This document shows positions 1,273 to 21,276 of a DNA stretch of 64,000 nt, piece after piece. Origin of the DNA: a virus; IMG/VR virus record IMGVR_UViG_3300042939_000511, positions 1 to 64,000 of that record. One strand, given 5' to 3'. How positions within the stretch are numbered: the stretch's first letter is position 1; each line of letters starts with the position of its first letter. A program made the position numbers and the translations under genes. The notes under the pieces are model-generated. The model did no database searches. It was not told where the DNA came from and saw only the letters and a program-made list of their open reading frames with translations.

Positions 1273-3111
1273 TTAAAGAGTGACCCGTTCTTTGATAAGC
1301 TTGTCTACTTTGCGTGACATATAGTTGATCATGTCATTAGGTAGATTTTTGATGTCAGTCATCTTGATAAAGTAGTCAAACATTTGAGCTGAAGGCACTG
1401 ATTCTTCAATAGCAATCTGAATTACCTGAAAACCTAAAGCCTGTGCTTTTTGAACTTTAGATTTGGTGTCTTCAATAGCAGATCTGCCACTGTAGCCTAC
1501 AGCTGAAGGCTGACCATCTGAAAGTACAAACAACAAGCCCTGATTGGGTGTGTTTTTACGTACTCTTTTTGCAAAAGCAAGTATAGCATCACCGTCGCGG
1601 TTGTTGCCTCTTGCTTCAATAGATCCTAAAGAAAAGGGATCTGTGACATAACCTTTCTCACGGTAAACACGCAAATAAGTGAGATGTGTAGAAGGTGTAT
1701 CTGCAGTATGACCATACATGTACAAGTCTACATCAGGCATGTTTTTGAAAACTTCGTTGATGAATATAGCAGCTTGTCGTGCTTTGTCAATTTTACTACC
1801 TCCCATGGAGCCTGATTCATCAATCAATACGCCCACACAGATTTTATTTGTGGTGACGCGTCCCATTCTTTCATAGATAGTAGGGACGTTTTGAACAGCT
1901 TCTGCAATCTTGTTGGTATCAAGTCTACCAGAACGCATTGACTTCATTACAAAAGCCTGGTCTTTACTTTTTCTTGCAAAAAGCTTTTGAAGCACAGCAG
2001 CTTTAGTACCGTCTACTTTGTGCAACGCATTTTTGTATGCGCTGATGTTAGTGTCAGCTTTTAAGAAGACTACAGTACTGTCTTCAGCAAAACCTTCTTC
2101 ATCATAATCTTTAGAATTAGGTATATGATGCGCGCCAGGTATCATGTCCTCAGTAAAATCTTCAAACTCTTTTGTGAAACCTCCTTCTTTGTTACCTTCT
2201 TCAGCATTGATCAAAGATTTGATCATCTCTTTAGCTATCTCATCCAAGTCTGATTTACTCAGCTGTGGTTTTGATTTGCCAGAAGATGACCCACCGTCTT
2301 CTTCATCATCTCCCTCACCTTCTCCAGGTGGAGGTGGTTCTTCGTCTTCGGTATATTTGACAATGATGTTGGTTAAAGAAGTAGCCATGCTAGCACATTC
2401 TGCAGTTGTATTAGGTATGCCGCCATACTTTTTCAAAAGACGTTCAATAGCTGTTACAGGCTTTTCAAATTCTTCAAGATCACTTTCAGAAATATTAGCA
2501 GGATAGCGTAACATTTTGACAATAAGATCCATCAAACGCTTTTGAGCAGGTTCTTCTTCCCCTACAACTGGTGCATTTTCATAGCGATGGTTCTTGAACT
2601 TTTGAACAAACTTAAGATAACCTGGCAGACGATCTGCAAGTTTTTTGTCAATACGTTCTGTATTCAACACAGTAAACAAAAGATCTTTTAGACCTACGTC
2701 TTTAGAGGTGTCTCTTGCTTTCATAGTCTGATAATACTCAGAAGTAGTCTGCATTGTGGCCAGTGCAGCATTTTGAATGGAAGCACCGTAGAACGCATCC
2801 AGCAGCTCTGTGTCTTTGTCCAGGTAGTTTCCTTTCTTATCGCGCAACATGCTCAATGGAATTTGCACTGAAGGATTACGTGAATTTGCTTCTACGTTAT
2901 TGGTGTATTCAAAGTCCTTAGGAACACCAATTACCCTGAATATAGAACCAATCATCTTAGCAGCTACTTTCAGAGAGTCGTTATTGCGGACAAAGAATGA
3001 GGAGTAAGAATCTCTGCCTCTGTCCCAGCTGAAAAATCTTTTAGAGTCATCAGCAAATGTGTAGGCATCTTCTGCCCTGCGGTTAAACCAGTCTCTTGAC
3101 AGTTTACTCAT
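1273..3111 (-). CDS. von Willebrand factor A (VWA) domain protein, CobT-like
   Basis: MIDAS motif in VGVLIDESGSMGG within the C-terminal half. Acidic low-complexity tract EEPPPPGEGEGDDEEDGG, as in CobT-like proteins. Adjacent to an AAA+ ATPase. Confidence 0.75.
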   Translation of the reverse strand: MSKLSRDWFNRRAEDAYTFADDSKRFFSWDRGRDSYSSFFVRNNDSLKVAAKMIGSIFRVIGVPKDFEYTNNVEANSRNPSVQIPLSMLRDKKGNYLDKDTELLDAFYGASIQNAALATMQTTSEYYQTMKARDTSKDVGLKDLLFTVLNTERIDKKLADRLPGYLKFVQKFKNHRYENAPVVGEEEPAQKRLMDLIVKMLRYPANISESDLEEFEKPVTAIERLLKKYGGIPNTTAECASMATSLTNIIVKYTEDEEPPPPGEGEGDDEEDGGSSSGKSKPQLSKSDLDEIAKEMIKSLINAEEGNKEGGFTKEFEDFTEDMIPGAHHIPNSKDYDEEGFAEDSTVVFLKADTNISAYKNALHKVDGTKAAVLQKLFARKSKDQAFVMKSMRSGRLDTNKIAEAVQNVPTIYERMGRVTTNKICVGVLIDESGSMGGSKIDKARQAAIFINEVFKNMPDVDLYMYGHTADTPSTHLTYLRVYREKGYVTDPFSLGSIEARGNNRDGDAILAFAKRVRKNTPNQGLLFVLSDGQPSAVGYSGRSAIEDTKSKVQKAQALGFQVIQIAIEESVPSAQMFDYFIKMTDIKNLPNDMINYMSRKVDKLIKERVTL

Positions 3112-3225
3112 GGTGTTTTAGTTTTAAGTTTTGTCTGACAAATAATAAACATTTGCGACATCAGGGTGTGAGCAACACGAATGTCACTCACAACCCTTTT
3201 GTCACAAACTCGCTGATCCTACAGC

Positions 3226-4512
3226 TTAAAACGCAGAAACAATAGACAATACCTTGCTGCGCTCACTCACACCAATGCTGTCTTCAAACAGCGGCATGAT
3301 CGTGGCCAGCAATGCTTTGTCTACTTCAAAACCATCAGAGATAAGTGATGCAGCTTGCAAGGTGTGACGAACTGACACAGGAGTGGATAGTTCCTGTTCT
3401 TTGTACTGCTTGCGAATCTCATTAGAGACTCTGACAATAGCAGTAGCAGCCTTTTCGTCTACGCCGGTGCGCAGTTTTAGCACATTAATCTCATCACGTT
3501 CTGAAGGATAGCCCAGCTCTACAGGAAAGAACCTGTCAAGTAAAGCGCGGTCAATACTATGGGTGCCAGAATATTCTGAACCCAGGTTTGCAGTAGCAAA
3601 GAACACGGTGTTTTCATGCACCGCAATCCTGCGCTCACCATCTTCACATGCAATGTCTACAGGCAAGTAACGTCGCTTGTCTAAGCATGGAAATAGGATA
3701 TTATTAGCTGCAAGTGGAGAGCGGTTAAGCTCATCAAGCAGTACAATACCACCGCTCTGAATGTGAGAAACAAAAGGTGCTTGTTCAAACGAAGAGTGAC
3801 CTTCCTTGTTTAGACGGTGTACACCTAACAGAGCGCTTTGGGCGTCTTGTACAGTACCCATATCTTGGATATAAAGCTCTTTTCCCATAGCAGTTGCCAA
3901 GTGGTAAAGAATTTCTGTTTTACCGCTACCAGTAGGTCCTACAAGTAAGGTGTTTTCACCACGCAGCGCGTTGCGGCACATCAAAAACCAGATGTCTGGA
4001 TCAATGTGAAAGCCAACATCTTCTGTTTTAGGTACAGGATAATGCGCTGCAATCGTGCGACGAATGTTGGTTCCAGTAGGTGTTGTTCCTGGCTCTTCAG
4101 GCTTAGGAGCAATCTTGTCCTCCCAGACATATTCATAGCCGTATGAAGCCATCTGTTCAGCCATTTTCTTGGCGTATTCTACACCATAGTCAGCGCTGTC
4201 CAGGAAATAATCAACAGCAAAGTCACAGACTTTCTGCAAACGCTCTTTGTCAAGTGATGACAAAGGAAATAGGTTACCTTCAAAAGAAAGAGCGATGATG
4301 TTCTCTTTGCGAATATGCAAGTGATCTGCTTCAGGAAAGTCATAGCCGTCAGAAACAAAAATGGTTTCCAAAGGAAATTTGGCAAAATCAGCAATAGAAG
4401 TTGTAATCTTCAAATCTTCAATGCTGCGGGTGAGAGTTTTCTCAAATGCCTGTTTAGGCAATGTCTTGATCTGGTAGCTAGTACCTTGAATAAAGCTTTG
4501 TAGTAGGATCAT
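3226..4512 (-). CDS. AAA+ ATPase (AAA_5 / MoxR / CobS-like)
   Basis: Walker A LLVGPTGSGKTEIL and Walker B-like IVLLDELNRS. Paired with the VWA protein (a CobS/CobT- or MoxR/VWA-type pair). Confidence 0.75.
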   Translation of the reverse strand: MILLQSFIQGTSYQIKTLPKQAFEKTLTRSIEDLKITTSIADFAKFPLETIFVSDGYDFPEADHLHIRKENIIALSFEGNLFPLSSLDKERLQKVCDFAVDYFLDSADYGVEYAKKMAEQMASYGYEYVWEDKIAPKPEEPGTTPTGTNIRRTIAAHYPVPKTEDVGFHIDPDIWFLMCRNALRGENTLLVGPTGSGKTEILYHLATAMGKELYIQDMGTVQDAQSALLGVHRLNKEGHSSFEQAPFVSHIQSGGIVLLDELNRSPLAANNILFPCLDKRRYLPVDIACEDGERRIAVHENTVFFATANLGSEYSGTHSIDRALLDRFFPVELGYPSERDEINVLKLRTGVDEKAATAIVRVSNEIRKQYKEQELSTPVSVRHTLQAASLISDGFEVDKALLATIMPLFEDSIGVSERSKVLSIVSAF

Positions 4513-12732: not shown

Positions 12733-12867
12733 TAGTCAGGACAGGATTCGAACCTGTGGTGCAAGTTATTAGGTGAAGTAATACTCTTCATTCATCAGAC
12801 TGAGCTGAACCTCTCATTACCTTGCCGACTTGTAGTAGTTGCGTCTAACCAATTCCGCCACCTGACT
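12733..12867 (-). ncRNA. split tRNA-like element, copy 1 (135 nt)
   Basis: On the minus strand a 5' AGTCAGG-TG-GCGG-AATTGGTTAG-ACGC segment (acceptor plus D-arm-like) is paired with 3' ACAGG-TTCGAAT-CCTGT-CCTGACT-A (canonical T-arm plus complementary acceptor). The roughly 100-nt body between them has no recognisable anticodon arm. Confidence 0.4.
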
Positions 12868-13081
12868 ATGTGCCTCACCCTGAGATTTGGGGTGAGTAGA
12901 TGTTTACAGTTTTTTGCTTTCAAAAAACCCAAAGTGTCTTACCACTTAAAAAAGTCAACACTACTGGGAGGAGTTGTGTCGCTCTCCTTTGTTCCCATGA
13001 TGTCCCACTCGCGCCGTAGACATTCTGCGGGTTCATTGTTTAAGTCTTGAACCAAAGACTCTGAGTATCTCTTACTCATTG

Positions 13082-13281
13082 CAGTCAGGATAGGATTTGA
13101 ACCTATATGCCATTTGTGGTTTTCTCTTACTACTGTTGCAACAGTACCACCAGCGTTTTGCAAATTCTGCATGTTGTCCGCTTACGTCTAACATACAATA
13201 TCAACCTTGCGGGTCAATCTTCGCGTCTACCATATCCAGCACATACTATTACTCTTTGTGCTTTCATTCCGCCACCTGACT
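13082..13281 (-). ncRNA. split tRNA-like element, copy 2 (200 nt)
   Basis: Same 5' AGTCAGGTGGCGGAAT and 3' ATAGG-TTCAAAT-CCTAT-CCTGACT-G ends as copy 1, around a longer diverged body. Both copies share TAGACGC and GCAAGGT blocks. Confidence 0.35.
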
Positions 13282-13519
13282 ATGTTTAGGGTGAGAAACC
13301 CTTTGTGTTGTGCACGGGAAAATTCTAATGCAATTCATCTCACTCCTTTCTCAAGGGAACAACACAATGTCTAAAAACAACTACAGTGCTACGTTTCAAG
13401 TGGCTTGTTAAGCCTTCGTAGGTACAATAAGGTGATCAACCCTCGTAAATACCCTTCATGCACTGCAGTTGTTTTAGACAAAAGCATACTTTAACCAGTA
13501 TGCCAGTGGTAGGTCAAAC

Positions 13520-14151: not shown

Positions 14152-14404
14152 CAGGTAAACTTTTAGGGTGTGAATTTTGATCGCGCAGTTTTTTGATGCA
14201 AAAATCCAGGTTGAGTTTGTAAGTCTCTAACTTCATGAGCATGGATGAATCAGTGCATTCAGCCATGTCATACTCAACCCACTCTTTCATATCCTCAAGG
14301 GTATTAAGAACCTCATAATCAACATAGGCTTTAATACCAAAAGAGGACAAGCTTATCACACTAACAAAAAGTGTGAGAGATACAAATAGTTTTTTAAGGT
14401 TCAT
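14135..14404 (-). CDS. small secreted protein
   Basis: 89 aa with an N-terminal signal peptide (LFVSLTLFVSVISLSSFG). Confidence 0.45.
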   Translation of the reverse strand: MNLKKLFVSLTLFVSVISLSSFGIKAYVDYEVLNTLEDMKEWVEYDMAECTDSSMLMKLETYKLNLDFCIKKLRDQNSHPKSLPDDNDC

Positions 14405-14660
14405 GTTAATTACAAGGTTTTAGTTGTCAAAATGATACAAGTAGAAATTTAGAGTACCAACGCCAGACACACCAACGCCGCTCGTTGGTCTGCTTTTATC
14501 GTTTGATTGTAGTTTACACAGACAAGATGACGGTAATATCATCCTTGTTAACAGGTCTGCATAAACCAGAGGAGAGGGGCGGAACTATTTTTCTCACAGC
14601 TCTGCCTGGCGCGGGTGACTCTAATGCTTCTACAGGGAGAGAGAAGATAAGAAGATATCT

Positions 14661-14849
14661 CCCTCTACACTCAGTTGTAACAAGTGGCACCCATTTGCAG
14701 GTAGGTGTTCTCCAATGGTTTCCTATTACAGCATACGTTCTGTAATATTCCCTGCTTGTTCTTGTTACAACTGGTTGTAATAGTTTTAGTCCTGTTTACA
14801 ATAACTACTAAGATGGGACTCTACAATACCCACATTACAACTGCTCACT
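14661..14849. repeat. structured repeat R2, an expanded version of R1
   Basis: TCCCTCTACACTCAGTTGTAAC (14661-14682), its 10-bp partner GTTACAACTG (14765-14774), and TTACAACTGCTCAC (14836-14849). These are 22/23 identical to the R1 ends at 12381-12457. Confidence 0.4.
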
Positions 14850-15090
14850 GATGTCAGTTAGTGCATGAGAAAGACTCTTTATGGCAAAAACTGATAGGTT
14901 ATAGCCATTTAGTGTCAAAATTTGTGCGTTCTGAGAAGTTTTTGAGGTGATCAAGAGGATGAGGAGGGGTGTGCTACCACTCACATAACTCCTTGCTCAT
15001 CAATAACTTACTGAACACTTACGTGTCAAAAAAGCAACTGAGAAAGCGCTGTGTAAATACAGCAACTTTCTCAGAAACTTGTTCAAGTGC

Positions 15091-15582
15091 TTAGAGACTT
15101 GCGTTCTTAGCACTACGTGCAGCGTTAAACTCACGCACAGCATCTGTATTATTATGCTGTACATAGACGTCGTGGTCTTGACCTGTTGCGTCATACACAG
15201 AAAATCTGATGATGCGCTCGCCGTCTACACAGAGTTCTACGCCGTCCTGACCTGCGCGTTTGACAAAGCTGTCAAGTGCTTCAGAAGCAGGTAGACTCTT
15301 ATTGGCAAACTGCTCAAAGAGACTCTCAGGGACTTCGCTCTCCAAGTACTCTTTGATAACGATGTGTCCGGGAAGCGACAGTGTCTTGTTAGACTGCACA
15401 AAACGCTGCAGCACGTCGCACTTAGCGCGCAACAGGGTGCTACGCTTGCGTTCTCTGATCCAAGTCCCTTCAGGGATCATAGAGGATTGAGACAATTGTA
15501 GGTAGCCGTACTCAGGTTTGTTTTTGAACGGAGTAATAAGGCTGCCTGTGGTGGAGTTGGGGATGATTTGAACTTGAGACAT
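15091..15582 (-). CDS. hypothetical protein, island paralogue A (start at internal Met MSQVQII)
   Basis: MSQVQIIPNSTTGSLITPF..YLQL..LLRAK..LPGHIVIKEYLE..KRAGQDGV aligns along its full length with 15835..16335. The upstream motif lies about 38 nt before this ATG. Confidence 0.55.
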   Translation of the reverse strand: MSQVQIIPNSTTGSLITPFKNKPEYGYLQLSQSSMIPEGTWIRERKRSTLLRAKCDVLQRFVQSNKTLSLPGHIVIKEYLESEVPESLFEQFANKSLPASEALDSFVKRAGQDGVELCVDGERIIRFSVYDATGQDHDVYVQHNNTDAVREFNAARSAKNASL

Positions 15583-17404: not shown

Positions 17405-18052
17405 TTAGTTGTACTCAAAGTCAAGGATCTTTCCTACCAGGTCAGAGCGGTGGTTCTCTTTAAGCTTGATCCACTTGATTTCAGGGATCTTCTTGCTCAG
17501 TTCTATGGCATAGGACAATCCGTTGTAATCGTCTCTGATGTCTTTTTGCTCATTGTCACCATTGACAATGATCTTGCCTGTTTTGCCCAGGCGTGTCAGA
17601 ATGGCCAGCATCTGCGCCTTGCTCAGGTTCTGTGCTTCTTCTACTACTAAGACATCATCAATAGTCTTTCCTCTAATGAACTGCACAGGATAGGCCACGA
17701 TCTGTTTGCTTTTGACCATCTCCTGAATCTTGGCTTTTTCATAGCACTTTTCCAAGTTCTCTACAAAAGCCTCCAAGTAAGGGTTAAACTTTTCATCTAG
17801 TGATCCTGGTAACAAGCCCATGGTGGCACCCACCTCAATGGTAGCGCGCGTCACATAGATATTATCGCATTCTTTTTTGAATAAGAAGTCTAGGGCTGTT
17901 TGTGCAGAGACTAATGACTTGCCTGAACCTGCGCGCCCTGTGACAATCACTATCTGGTTTTCTCTTATTAAACGCTTGGCATCTCTTTGCTCTTCGTTAA
18001 GCTCTACTAAATACTTGATTTCTGTCTTGCGTGATCTATTGGCGTCTCTCAT
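17405..18052 (-). CDS. phoH: PhoH-like ATPase
   Basis: IVIVTGRAGSGKSLVSAQTAL (Walker A), VTRATIEVGATMGLLPGSLDEKFNPYL, VVEEAQNLS, ILTRLGKTGKIIVNGDNEQKD and ENHRSDLV all match conserved PhoH blocks. Confidence 0.85.
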   Translation of the reverse strand: MRDANRSRKTEIKYLVELNEEQRDAKRLIRENQIVIVTGRAGSGKSLVSAQTALDFLFKKECDNIYVTRATIEVGATMGLLPGSLDEKFNPYLEAFVENLEKCYEKAKIQEMVKSKQIVAYPVQFIRGKTIDDVLVVEEAQNLSKAQMLAILTRLGKTGKIIVNGDNEQKDIRDDYNGLSYAIELSKKIPEIKWIKLKENHRSDLVGKILDFEYN

Positions 18053-20475: not shown

Positions 20476-20548
20476 GCCACTTTAGCTCAGCTGGTAGAGC
20501 GACTGATTTGTAATCAGTAGGTCGTGGGTTCAATTCCTACAAGTGGCT
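20476..20548 (+). tRNA. tRNA-Thr (anticodon UGU)
   Basis: Full cloverleaf folded by hand: acceptor GCCACTT/AAGTGGC, D-arm GCTC-AGCTGGTA-GAGC, anticodon stem ACTGA/TCAGT with loop TTTGTAA, variable loop AGGTC, T-arm GTGGG-TTCAATT-CCTAC. No encoded CCA. Confidence 0.85.
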
Positions 20549-20577
20549 CTAATTTCTCTTAAACCAACTCCAACCCT

Positions 20578-21166: not shown

Positions 21167-21241
21167 TGCGGGCAGCCCTGGTGGCAGTCGTGGCTCATAA
21201 CCACAGATGTGTGGCAGGTTCGACCCCTGCGCCCGCTACCA
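21167..21241 (+). tRNA. tRNA-like element, anticodon CAT (Met/Ile-type), encoded CCA, non-canonical D-arm: possible unusual tRNA or pseudo-tRNA
   Basis: Acceptor TGCGGGC/GCCCGCT (6 bp plus a 1:72 mismatch), A73, CCA at 21239-21241. T-arm GCAGG-TTCGACC-CCTGC. Anticodon hairpin GTGG-CTCATAA-CCAC. However, there is an 8-nt variable region and no acceptable D-stem. Confidence 0.35.
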
Positions 21242-21245
21242 ATGT

Positions 21246-21276
21246 CCAGTTTTTAGTTCAAAAAACTGGACTTTTT
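21246..21276 (+). terminator. Rho-independent terminator CCAGTTTTT-AGTTCA-AAAAACTGG + TTTTT
   Basis: 9-bp stem then ACTTTTTA, 5 nt after the tRNA-like 3' end. Confidence 0.55.

Follow-up and report, generated by a model that had tools for sequence, protein, structure and literature searches.

Two tRNA-like elements in a viral genome fragment belong to a family of putative non-decoding ‘chassis’ RNAs with variable inserts

On its minus strand, the window (the whole 64,000-nucleotide stretch of viral DNA that was analysed) holds two elements that have the ends of a tRNA around a large, unusual body (Table 1). We use ‘chassis’ for the conserved tRNA-like ends (acceptor, D-arm and T-arm) and ‘cargo’ for the variable insert that replaces the anticodon/variable-arm region. 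Element 1 reads AGTCAGG-TG-GCGG-AATTGGTTAG-ACGC ... ACAGG-TTCGAAT-CCTGT-CCTGACT-A, and element 2 opens with an identical 16-nt 5' block and closes with ATAGG-TTCAAAT-CCTAT-CCTGACT-G. Each has a 7-bp acceptor helix (AGTCAGG/CCTGACT, with U-A at position 3:70), a Leu-type D-arm in which G18-G19 is kept (GCGG-AAT(T)GG..ACGC) and a canonical T-arm, and neither has an anticodon arm, for which a 5-bp stem closing a 7-nt loop with U33 and a readable anticodon would be expected. This bears out the first-pass annotation as to where the elements lie, with 5' blocks, T-arms and complementary acceptor strands all present, and as to the large body that it could not fold into an anticodon arm: ARAGORN in its default mode finds nothing in the region of the elements and, with introns allowed, no consistent anticodon.

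Table 1. Features of the two tRNA-like elements and of the DNA around them (positions in the window)
Feature	Positions	Strand	Size, pairing or basis
Element 1 (copy 1), chassis RNA with cargo type 1	12733..12867	minus	135 nt including discriminator A at 12733
Element 1 acceptor 5' strand AGTCAGG	12861..12867	minus	7/7 pairs with 12734-12740
Element 1 Leu-type (class II) D-arm GCGG-AATTGGTTAG-ACGC	12841..12858	minus	sequence, Rfam alignment, homologues
Element 1 mini hairpin, 3 bp and 6-nt loop ACUACA, at anticodon-arm position	12828..12839	minus	RNAalifold
Element 1 cargo domain	12761..12825	minus	RNAalifold consensus
Element 1 T-arm ACAGG-TTCGAAT-CCTGT	12741..12757	minus	sequence, family covariation
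Element 1 acceptor 3' strand CCTGACT	12734..12740	minus	sequence; discriminator A at 12733, then C
Spacer between elements 1 and 2	12868..13081	minus	contains hairpin CTCACCC..GGGTGAG (12896-12874) just before element 1
Element 2 (copy 2), chassis RNA with cargo type 2 and D-loop insertion	13082..13281	minus	200 nt including discriminator G at 13082
Element 2 acceptor 5' strand AGTCAGG	13275..13281	minus	7/7 pairs with 13083-13089
Element 2 portable hairpin in D-loop, GCACA-AAGAGUAAUAGUA-UGUGC	13234..13265	minus	32 nt; recurs in viral contigs
Element 2 D-arm 3' part ATGGTAGACGC, displaced by insertion	13223..13233	minus	sequence
Element 2 cargo domain, several helices	13107..13222	minus	~116 nt; covariation among 4 homologues
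Element 2 T-arm ATAGG-TTCAAAT-CCTAT	13090..13106	minus	sequence
Element 2 acceptor 3' strand CCTGACT	13083..13089	minus	sequence
Small hairpin AGGGT..ACCCT upstream of element 2	13288..13302	minus	sequence; such hairpins not general in the family

The bodies differ from their earlier description in some respects. A complete D-arm had been recognised in copy 1, correctly, and only the start of one in copy 2; the latter is in fact complete as well, split by the 32-nt D-loop hairpin in the arrangement GGCGGAAT[GAAAGCACAAAGAGTAATAGTATGTGCTGGAT]ATGGTAGACGC. With that hairpin recognised, the block TAGACGC, previously counted among those shared by the two bodies, falls within the D-arm. A second such block, GCAAGGT, is indeed common to both but at non-equivalent structural positions, forming a helix strand in the cargo of element 1 and a hairpin loop plus 3' strand in that of element 2, and its sharing is probably coincidental. 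Within element 1, the anticodon-arm position is taken by a mini hairpin whose loop is not a 7-nt anticodon loop, and whose pairs 29:40 and 31:38 are both compensatory in RNAalifold (A-U to C-G and U-A to C-G); D-arm pair 11:26 changes from C-G to A-U in homologues. The cargo of this element folds into an outer GCAAG/CTTGC helix and an inner AGGU/ACCU helix around two hairpins, UCAG..CUGA and GAAG..CUUC. In element 2, a U-A pair of the T-stem is replaced by C-G in the orthologue L253, again a compensatory change. Single-sequence folding energies of the two elements are unremarkable against shuffles (z = -0.27 and -1.31), such that the support for their structures is comparative and not thermodynamic.

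The short hairpins that had been noted just before each 5' half are present, and the one before element 1 is kept in one relative, L268, but they are not a general feature of the family: 45-nt upstream windows fold at -8 kcal/mol or better in 23% of cases, against 13% of shuffles. Similarity to L272, which holds an orthologue of element 2, ends 4 nt upstream of the element. The spacer is conserved in L268 at its two ends, though not in its middle, and a 46-codon ORF within it was rejected as a small protein gene, being truncated in that same relative.

The family to which the two elements belong comprises at least 308 elements (276 unique), spread over at least 188 contigs, mostly viral; it was collected by exact seeds taken from the chassis (5' block or 3' block), and the counts are lower bounds. 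Among the members listed, lengths run from 66 to 287 nt with a median of 105. The elements sit inside phage tRNA clusters, on one strand per locus, at a median spacing of 200 nt, and their arrays reach 8 or 9 members. The two-ended architecture is far beyond chance, given this recurrence and the score of copy 1 against the Rfam tRNA model (RF00005), which is 35.5 bits, attained only with permissive filtering (fast filters off) and compared with a gathering threshold of 29, and which places a 53-nt insertion in the anticodon arm. Element 2 has no RF00005 match, even with permissive filters; across the family, members score 30-48 bits against 50-71 bits for true tRNAs.

A look among relatives for the two conserved blocks, as the first-pass annotation had suggested, finds both. 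In the 5'-block-seeded set conservation is 94% or higher at all positions of the unselected 3' block, and in the 3'-block-seeded set a 5' partner stands at 66-290 nt in ~94% of occurrences. The near-invariant core is the minihelix AGUCAGG...ACAGG-UUCGAAU-CCUGU-CCUGACU-A, and U8, A14, G18-G19 and the T-loop UUCGAAU are retained across the family. Over 76 scaffold variants, 98% of cells are paired and 11 of the 12 chassis pairs show double changes; none of 500 shuffles was as good, and slid controls were 26-49% paired. Non-Watson-Crick cells in the T-stem comprise 53 G.U and 4 A.C, which makes the pairing strand-specific. Since the ends covary and the 5' strand accompanies the 3' block in ~94% of occurrences, the elements are neither unpaired halves nor att-site remnants of a host tRNA gene, and, of the three readings offered earlier, only that of a tRNA-like decoy or mimic survives, on the same observations.

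In the context of both 5' leader and 3' trailer, the elements resemble the real tRNAs in these clusters. Position -1 is U in 81% of members, compared with 65% of 380 real tRNAs at these loci. Of the at least 308 members, 87% have A as discriminator; the base that follows is C in 97%, compared with 91% of the real tRNAs, and is itself followed by A or T. The likely hosts of the carrier phages are Bacteroidota. The family was not found in deposited phage genomes, where matches are ordinary tRNA D-arms or T-arms, and among the first 120 genome matches listed for the exact 15-mer the architecture is present in 3, each on a MAG contig and with a long body. Unusual tRNA-like genes of another sort, outside the chassis family, are found in Tenacibaculum phage pT24.

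The cargo (~20-200 nt) is hypervariable, with 158 cargo clusters among 197 unique members and no 7-mer common to more than 7 of the 148 members in the cargo comparison. Those of elements 1 and 2 are of unrelated types, and the closest relative of the window phage has element 2 and lacks element 1; what had been read as ‘two diverged tandem copies’ is better described as two different cargo types on one chassis. Compensatory base changes are shown in at least three cargo types, the covariation within each spanning few independent lineages. The consensus fold for type 1 (RNAalifold, 10 sequences from two main subtypes) has 35 pairs, 7 of them compensatory (59:94, 62:71 and 80:92 within the cargo domain), and none broken among the 17 pairs of the cargo domain or the 20 pairs of its four cargo helices; type 2, with 4 homologues, has 6 compensatory pairs (61:120, 63:118, 87:112, 89:110 and 139:148 in the cargo, 180:194 in the T-stem); and in a third, unrelated type 9 of 28 pairs are compensatory. 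Compensatory changes were also seen by eye in the cargo type of L030/L247, which we do not count as tool evidence. Type 1 is confined to the chassis in 13 of 13 true metagenome matches. Saying this, constrained folds pair only ~48% of cargo bases and reveal no common cargo architecture, so that some cargos may be unconstrained filler. Judged from these comparisons, the chassis is under purifying selection with compensatory changes, as are individual cargos, which argues against the degenerate tRNA array that had also been considered.

No familiar identity for the cargo emerged. A permissive Rfam scan of the window region, bodies and spacer included, and 18 array-rich loci returned the tRNA model only, plus chance-level matches, among them a weak one between cargo 1 and the C/D-box family sR60 (16.9 bits, E ~1). 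The CUGAUGA of cargo 1 was rejected as the core of a hammerhead, since the U in it changes in step with a pairing partner, and a role as antisense regulator was set aside, the longest complementarity within the 64-kb window being 12-13 nt, no better than shuffles. Nor do the neighbours offer a clue: no protein is conserved next to the arrays, the largest cluster being present at 18 of 130 loci, and a scan of ~40 window ORFs revealed no recognisable enzyme of tRNA or RNA processing.

Comparison between loci points to rapid exchange. Element 1 is 99-100% identical in L269, L270, L271 and L383; in L271 the identity is 100% within flanks that are 72-79% identical, and in L269 and L270 it is 99% with no detectable flank similarity. 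The orthologue of element 2 in L253/L272 is 95.6% identical, and homologues of its cargo in L271 and L011 are without the D-loop insertion. The D-loop hairpin module itself occurs in 26 viral contigs, joined to different cargos, and cargos found with it also occur without it; the D-loop is a second insertion site of the chassis. Presence/absence indels have their junctions in the conserved 5' or 3' blocks, where crossover adds or removes whole cassettes, and cargos and the D-loop module recombine freely.

Taken together, we favour, at a probability of about one half, the reading that the two elements encode chassis RNAs which derive from tRNA, do not decode and bear exchangeable structured cargo. 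From their genomic context, chassis RNAs would be co-transcribed with the neighbouring tRNAs, excised by RNase P and the tRNA 3'-end machinery, provided with CCA and folded into the tRNA elbow; by virtue of such tRNA-like processing and elbow fold, the chassis would supply biogenesis, stability and possibly the binding of tRNA-handling proteins, with the cargo acting as a variable effector, for instance a protein-binding or decoy domain directed against the host. On the same reading the chassis would stem from a class II tRNA-Leu and, since bacterial LeuRS requires no more than A73 and the D/T tertiary core, leucylation may persist in many members. We also speculate, quite tentatively and on a point where we would sooner expect to be wrong, that phages of (probably) Bacteroidota keep a ‘plug-in’ RNA display. 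Its invariant minihelix would ensure processing, stability and an aminoacylatable end, with slots for hundreds of different structured cargos at the anticodon/variable-arm position and in the D-loop; recombination within the chassis would shuffle cargos between phages, and the shuffled cargos would serve as rapidly evolving effectors (for example aptamer-like inhibitors, or decoys, of the host's defence or translation factors).

An alternative is that the ends alone matter. Chassis conservation far exceeds cargo conservation and the RNAs, lacking an anticodon, cannot decode; they might then be pure tRNA-end decoys or sponges, whose acceptor, T-arm, elbow and CCA soak up host tRNA-end factors, the anticodon being irrelevant and the cargo only tuning stability or keeping the RNA off the ribosome. 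Candidate targets would be defence nucleases or toxins acting on the CCA tail or acceptor stem, LeuRS, EF-Tu and the CCA-adding enzyme; multi-copy arrays would yield a high dosage, and the likely Bacteroidota hosts would suit such a role. We nonetheless consider it unlikely: a decoy could do with any cargo or none in particular, but individual cargo types persist between divergent phages and show compensatory changes, and only a minority of bodies is very short (27 of the 308 elements listed are of 76 nt or less). Known tail-targeting enzymes tolerate changes in acceptor-stem sequence and so do not explain one specific acceptor sequence, and the real phage tRNAs of the same clusters would already serve as their substrates.

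A different role is suggested by the probable origin of the chassis. Its D-arm is near-identical to those of real phage tRNA-Leu genes in the same clusters, a Leu-like anticodon loop survives in a few members, and class II tRNA-Leu is its probable ancestor; chassis and canonical class II tRNA-Leu have in common the D-arm GGCGGAAUUGGUAGACGC, U8, A14, G18-G19, the T-loop and discriminator A73. Unlike tRNA-Leu, chassis RNAs have no anticodon stem-loop, attain lengths of up to 287 nt and start with an unusual A1-U72 acceptor pair, which is absent from the real tRNA-Leu genes in the clusters. The identity set of bacterial LeuRS consists of exactly such retained features, A73 and the tertiary core, with the anticodon arm dispensable for aminoacylation (PMC2377443). 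One could envisage leucine-charged donors, which the LeuRS of the host would aminoacylate and which would serve away from the ribosome (e.g. with an aminoacyl-tRNA transferase) or for 3'-end protection in the manner of plant-virus tRNA-like structures; the L/F-transferase is an enzyme that uses Leu-tRNA outside translation (PMC4105747). The notion of universal leucylation is, however, weakened by the G at the discriminator of element 2 and by D-arms that are not Leu-like in many members of the less biased 3'-block-seeded set; with no transferase or synthetase gene nearby and the diversity of the cargo unexplained, we regard leucine donors as improbable.

The turnover described above could be seen in another light, with the conserved blocks persisting as recombination or homing sites, or through gene conversion within tRNA clusters, in selfish DNA cassettes or decaying tRNA-Leu pseudogenes whose RNA is functionless. 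Presence/absence polymorphism with junctions inside those blocks, islands of 99-100% identity in otherwise dissimilar contigs and a collapsed element remnant in L054 would all fit, and a homing endonuclease, segB, lies in the T4 tRNA cluster. Against this, compensatory changes preserve RNA helices in chassis and cargos alike, the 53:4 excess of G.U over A.C is strand-specific, the conserved positions are tRNA tertiary positions as opposed to arbitrary repeats, the flanking sequence resembles that of real tRNAs in its processing context, and no endonuclease or recombinase is consistently adjacent; we think this reading decidedly improbable.

Finally, decoding tRNA-Leu genes with introns that are spliced out or giant expansions that are tolerated, reading Leu or stop codons, are very improbable indeed and the intron-interrupted reading of the first-pass annotation is largely refuted, for although RF00005 aligns element 1 as a tRNA with an insertion and a Leu-like 7-nt anticodon loop is kept in a few members (L051, L305, L311 and L333), ARAGORN with introns, run at several thresholds, gives ~40 different anticodons scattered across the family (which also rejects suppressor tRNAs), the shortest members (69-80 nt) have no 7-nt anticodon loop, in the element-1 type a 3-bp stem with a 6-nt loop is conserved at the anticodon position, the mutually unrelated bodies match no Rfam intron or ribozyme family at permissive thresholds (group I and other introns included), and these clusters also contain canonical tRNA-Leu genes whose acceptor stems differ.

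That phage tRNA clusters can contain stable tRNA-like RNAs has been recognised since T4, whose rnaC (species 1) and rnaD (species 2) are stable small RNAs at the end of the phage tRNA cluster, on the tRNA strand. The tRNA-like domain of rnaC has an 8-bp acceptor-type helix (ACGGAACG/CGTTTCGT), a perfect T-arm (CCGGG-TTCGAAT-CCCGG) and a non-anticodon hairpin; it matches only the tRNA-Sec model, weakly, and, unlike chassis RNAs, its tRNA-like part bears a 5' extension of ~45 nt. Read beside the chassis, rnaC and rnaD show no visible sequence similarity to it, and they are single genes without a shared chassis and exchangeable hypervariable cargo; we know of no arrays or cassette turnover for them, nor, to our knowledge, has their function ever been explained. 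The resemblance is in kind only, that of a tRNA-like stable RNA in a phage tRNA cluster.

A eukaryotic virus, murine gammaherpesvirus 68, carries an array of non-decoding tRNA-like units, transcribed by Pol III, that act as processing and expression modules for other small RNAs, with pre-miRNA hairpins appended 3' of a complete tRNA-like unit. Chassis RNAs likewise form a viral tRNA-like array that carries other small RNAs, but their cargo is embedded at the anticodon-arm position instead of appended 3', and the sequences are unrelated. These units are the TMERs, or tRNA-miRNA-encoding RNAs (PMC4337559). Engineered tRNA scaffolds, which together with T4 rnaC/rnaD are the nearest precedents, follow the same design, in that acceptor, D-arm and T-arm are kept and an arbitrary structured RNA replaces the anticodon arm, the chimeras being processed and stabilised by the cell like tRNA (PMC3753655 and PMC4402540). 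Such scaffolds are artificial, whereas the phage family would be natural, evolving and equipped with a second insertion site in the D-loop.

Two further systems were considered and rejected as identities. tmRNA, unlike the chassis RNAs, has G3:U70, a tag ORF and pseudoknots; 3:70 is U-A here, ARAGORN in tmRNA mode is negative and there is no Rfam tmRNA match. YrlA Y RNAs have the opposite topology, the ends of the RNA lying at the Ro-binding stem, and those of the present elements form an acceptor stem; YrlA also accompanies a Ro60/Rsr gene, and the window has no TROVE protein, its 612-aa vWA protein being CobT-like and without a TROVE domain. What both do share with the chassis RNAs is that they are non-decoding and, by mimicry of part of a tRNA (T-arm, D-arm, acceptor), engage tRNA-binding machinery (PMC4201824).

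A full-text search of open-access papers and bioRxiv preprints, the exact 15-mer included, returned no description of the family. It is apparently undescribed, and its members look like a ‘tRNA chassis’ for other small RNAs rather than codon-decoding tRNAs. One consequence is practical: 31-33 of the shorter members pass as tRNAs in ARAGORN output, under anticodons that mean nothing (aat, ata, act and aga), and the remaining members are missed, such that phage tRNA counts and codon-usage inferences drawn from metagenomes are contaminated. Another is that the family, with its hundreds of natural variants and its obvious constant and variable parts, makes the question of function testable. If the cargos are effectors, they would represent a large unexplored class of phage RNA-based tools for host manipulation or anti-defence, and phages would have reached the same tRNA-scaffold design as biotechnologists; and if the plug-in display is true, phages would have in it the RNA equivalent of their anti-defence gene cassettes that encode proteins.

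Both tRNA-like elements claimed by the first-pass annotation are present when the minus strand of the window is read (see table). Each keeps the top half of a tRNA (acceptor stem, D-arm and T-arm; the 'chassis') and carries a variable structured insert (the 'cargo') in place of the anticodon part. The annotation had credited copy 1 alone with a complete D-arm, which needs amending, as that of element 2 is also complete, a hairpin within its D-loop interrupting it. Neither element is called by default-mode ARAGORN or Rfam, whose sole report is a tRNA-Thr at 20476-20549; under permissive filtering the tRNA model of Rfam spans the whole of element 1, scoring 35.5 bits against a threshold of 29 and placing a 53-nt insertion in the anticodon arm, and gives no match to element 2. 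As single sequences, the two have ordinary folding energies (z = -0.27 and -1.31).

Minus-strand tRNA-like elements of the window and their component parts
Feature	Position	Strand	Description
Element 1	12867..12733	minus	AGTCAGG-TG-GCGG-AATTGGTTAG-ACGC, 83 nt, ACAGG-TTCGAAT-CCTGT-CCTGACT-A
Element 2	13281..13082	minus	first 16 nt those of element 1; end ATAGG-TTCAAAT-CCTAT-CCTGACT-G
D-loop hairpin of element 2	13265-13234	minus	32 nt, interrupts otherwise complete D-arm
Element 1 hairpin	anticodon-arm position		3 bp, 6-nt loop
Element 1 cargo domain	variable-arm position		65 nt, outer helix plus helix enclosing two hairpins

The spacer between them (12868-13081) has a counterpart at 6197-6440 of L268, a 219-kb contig, in which approximately the first 50 nt and the last 35 nt are conserved, the latter including the hairpin CTCACCC..GGGTGAG, while the middle has diverged and a 46-codon ORF of the window is 18 codons long; the spacer ends may carry processing or termination signals.

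Both elements are members of a large family, for which the figures are lower bounds, from scans that used the chassis or a cargo as seed. More than 120 IMG/VR contigs contain the 15-mer GTCAGGTGGCGGAAT, nearly always within the same architecture among the matches listed. In this 5'-seeded set the 3' block (T-arm plus CCTGACT), which was not selected for, is at least 94% conserved at each position, with U at -1 in 84%, A as discriminator in 87% and C as the next base in 96%, again among the matches listed. Conversely, seeding with the 3' block only gave at least 72 testable new occurrences; among the matches listed, 62 of 72 have the 5' partner (AGTCAGG plus the start of the D-arm) by a strict pattern, and in about six others AGTCAGG is visible together with another D-arm. 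The two halves thus belong together, which rules out the idea that these are att-site remnants of tRNA genes, left without a 5' partner. The D-arm is less uniform in the 3'-seeded than in the 5'-seeded sample, and what stays constant throughout is the minihelix of acceptor and T-arm. Class I type D-arms (TAGCTCAGT.., TAACTCAATTGGTAGAGT) accompany the acceptor stem and T-arm of the chassis at L268 3814-3944 and in a 77-nt member of locus L276, so that the minihelix has D-arm partners of at least two kinds. A census of loci gave at least 308 members (276 unique) at 188 or more loci, of 66-287 nt (median 105). Within cellular genomes the architecture was found in three of the 120 15-mer matches listed, all on MAG contigs, two of them identifiable (Sediminibacterium and Flavobacterium); the deposited phage genomes searched did not contain the family. 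The window itself is that of a tailed phage, encoding a terminase, portal, major head protein and crAss-type tail ring domain, a gene set that fits Bacteroidota as the putative hosts.

That the two halves pair, as first proposed, holds up well: across 76 distinct acceptor plus T-arm variants, standard pairs fill 98% of cells and both partners vary in 11 of 12 pairs, values reached by none of 500 shuffles, with slid registers only 26-49% paired. Membership required at least six of the seven acceptor pairs, so the T-stem is the unbiased part of this test; its non-Watson-Crick cells (53 G.U versus 4 A.C) fix the transcribed strand. The D-stem shows compensations too, such as C11-G26 to A-U in the copy-1 type. 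Members are housed in phage tRNA clusters, on one strand at any locus, in arrays of up to 8-9 with a median spacing of 200 nt, and their flanks resemble those of 380 real tRNAs of the same loci (U at -1; discriminator, then C, then A or T), a likeness from which we infer that RNase P and the tRNA 3'-end pathway mature them. At one locus (L054, minus strand, ~4098) a collapsed element, AGTCAGGTGGCGGAAT followed by CCTGTCCTGACTACA, has the 5' block fused directly to the T-arm end, as though the stretch separating the chassis's two GAAT repeats had been deleted.

The family elements are not decoding tRNAs. Even members of 69-80 nt lack a 7-nt anticodon loop, and the earlier suggestion of a tRNA interrupted by an intron-like insertion is not supported by intron-allowing ARAGORN, which returns some 40 different anticodons across the family with no consistency. 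Without the intron option, 31-33 short members are called, with anticodons (aat, ata, act, aga) that one would not expect of real tRNA genes. The same clusters also contain real tRNA-Leu(UAA/UAG) genes, canonical ones whose acceptor stems differ from that of the chassis; their D-arms, very similar to that of the chassis, and the Leu-like anticodon loop surviving in a few members point to a class II tRNA-Leu as the probable ancestor. For bacterial LeuRS the recognised features are A73 and the tertiary core (U8-A14, G18-U55, G19-C56), and charging can do without the anticodon arm (PMC2377443). These being the parts that the chassis keeps, leucylation of chassis RNAs is plausible; given the G73 of element 2 and the D-arms that do not resemble those of tRNA-Leu, it could not extend to the whole family.

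The middle of these RNAs is a hypervariable cargo, of which individual recurring types are conserved structured RNAs. No 7-mer is common to more than 7 of 148 bodies, 197 unique members cluster into 158 cargo types (132 singletons), and constrained folds place one to three helices at the junction with no common plan. Element 1 is 99-100% identical in L269, L270, L271 and metagenome contig L383, and 95.7% identical in L268; flanking similarity is undetectable in L269 and L270, and amounts to 72-79% identity in L271. In a diverged subtype (L011 plus eight metagenome contigs) the differences are mainly paired changes. For element 1 as a whole, 10 sequences yield a consensus structure of 35 pairs, of which seven are compensatory, with none of the 20 cargo pairs broken. 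A 17-mer of this cargo has 48 metagenome matches, 13 of which continue into cargo, every one inside a chassis; the other 35 are chance. Homologues of the element 2 cargo in L253, L271 and L011 supply six compensatory pairs, and a third type, unrelated to the window cargos, has 9 of 28 pairs compensatory, covariation within each type coming from few lineages. No cargo scanned matched an Rfam family, and the window cargos have no above-chance antisense complementarity within the window. Some cargos (L030, L247, L112, L117) contain an internal T-arm-like hairpin, apparently a tRNA-like module nested inside the chassis (CCCG-TTCGAGT-CGGG in L030 versus GGGG-TTCGAGT-CCCC in L247, these two sharing a fourth cargo type).

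Parts are also exchanged. The D-loop hairpin of element 2 occurs in at least 26 viral contigs on chassis with different cargos, and cargos are found with and without it (L248 versus L011, L255 versus L084, L260 versus L023, L249 versus L011); further D-loop insertions occur in L094, L302 and L324. Among the matches listed, the phage most closely related to that of the window (contig 3300016471_000437, ~89% identical) has an orthologue of element 2 (95.6% identity) and lacks the spacer and element 1; instead it carries another element, of 139 nt, upstream. The two junctions fall within the shared 3' block and the shared 5' block, respectively, the pattern expected if chassis sequences recombine unequally or ectopically.

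No consistently adjacent protein family was found, the largest cluster (a terminase-like protein) being present in 18 of 130 loci, and neither a tRNA- or RNA-processing enzyme nor Ro60 was recognised among ~40 window ORFs scanned. At 1273-4512 (-) and 17405-18052 (-) lie a MoxR/CbbQ-type AAA+ ATPase adjoining a CobT-like vWA protein, and a PhoH-like ATPase; no connection of these to the RNA elements was found.

Further candidates for structured RNAs came up in the window and elsewhere. At 14664-14776 (minus reading), in an ORF-poor ~700 bp (14404-15091), lies a 113-nt element with two hairpins inside a long-range stem, a perfect one of 13-15 bp (CAGTTGTAACAAG / CTTGTTACAACTG; MFE -34.6 kcal/mol, z = -3.9; 0/200 shuffles fold as well). 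It has no Rfam family and is 99% identical over 105 bp to L271 9318-9422, where the flanks show just 72-79% identity to the window; a further small structured RNA is one possibility, a MITE-like element another. A compact tRNA-like candidate at 21167-21240 (+) was overlooked by detectors: ARAGORN is negative at default and ps90 settings, and Rfam matches tRNA-Sec alone (20.7 bits, E = 0.32). Its T-arm is perfect (GCAGG-TTCGACC-CCTGC), its acceptor has 6 bp (GCGGGC/GCCCGC, U.U at 1:72), its 7-nt loop, CUCAUAA, gives the anticodon CAU, and its A-CCA end is encoded; a terminator-like hairpin comes next, at 21246-21275. Within a phage tRNA/chassis cluster, L019 4124-4186 matches the freshwater-1 RNA motif (RF02979) just below threshold, at 70.1 bits for a gathering score of 72. 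Two near-identical 'tRNA-Undet' genes of Tenacibaculum phage pT24 (LC168164.1, L121; 5790-5868 and 6157-6235) combine normal acceptor, D- and T-arms with an extended 'anticodon' stem that ends in a loop of 5 nt; their chassis differs from that of the window family, and they suggest anticodon-less tRNA-like RNAs in other Bacteroidota phages.

We propose, at roughly even odds (about 0.5), that a chassis-and-cargo RNA best fits the data: the tRNA top half would ensure processing and stability and open the way to tRNA-binding proteins, with the cargo as a variable effector. The main rival, under which the RNAs would serve purely to decoy tRNA-end-targeting factors, leaves the conservation of cargos unexplained; a selfish cassette and an intron-bearing tRNA are both disfavoured by the RNA-level covariation and the want of a consistent anticodon.

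The nearest natural precedent for the family is the T4 pair rnaC/rnaD, stable RNAs encoded where the tRNA cluster of that phage ends, of which rnaC has a tRNA-like acceptor/T-arm domain with a non-anticodon hairpin (verified on sequence); the engineered tRNA scaffold is the nearest design analogue and the MHV68 TMERs a eukaryotic-virus analogue. None of these shares sequence with the family or offers one chassis with hundreds of exchangeable cargos, and we found no description of the family in the open-access literature searched. We rate it as belonging with the known phage tRNA-like non-coding RNAs; should the cargos prove to be effectors, there is a substantial chance that the family is categorically new.
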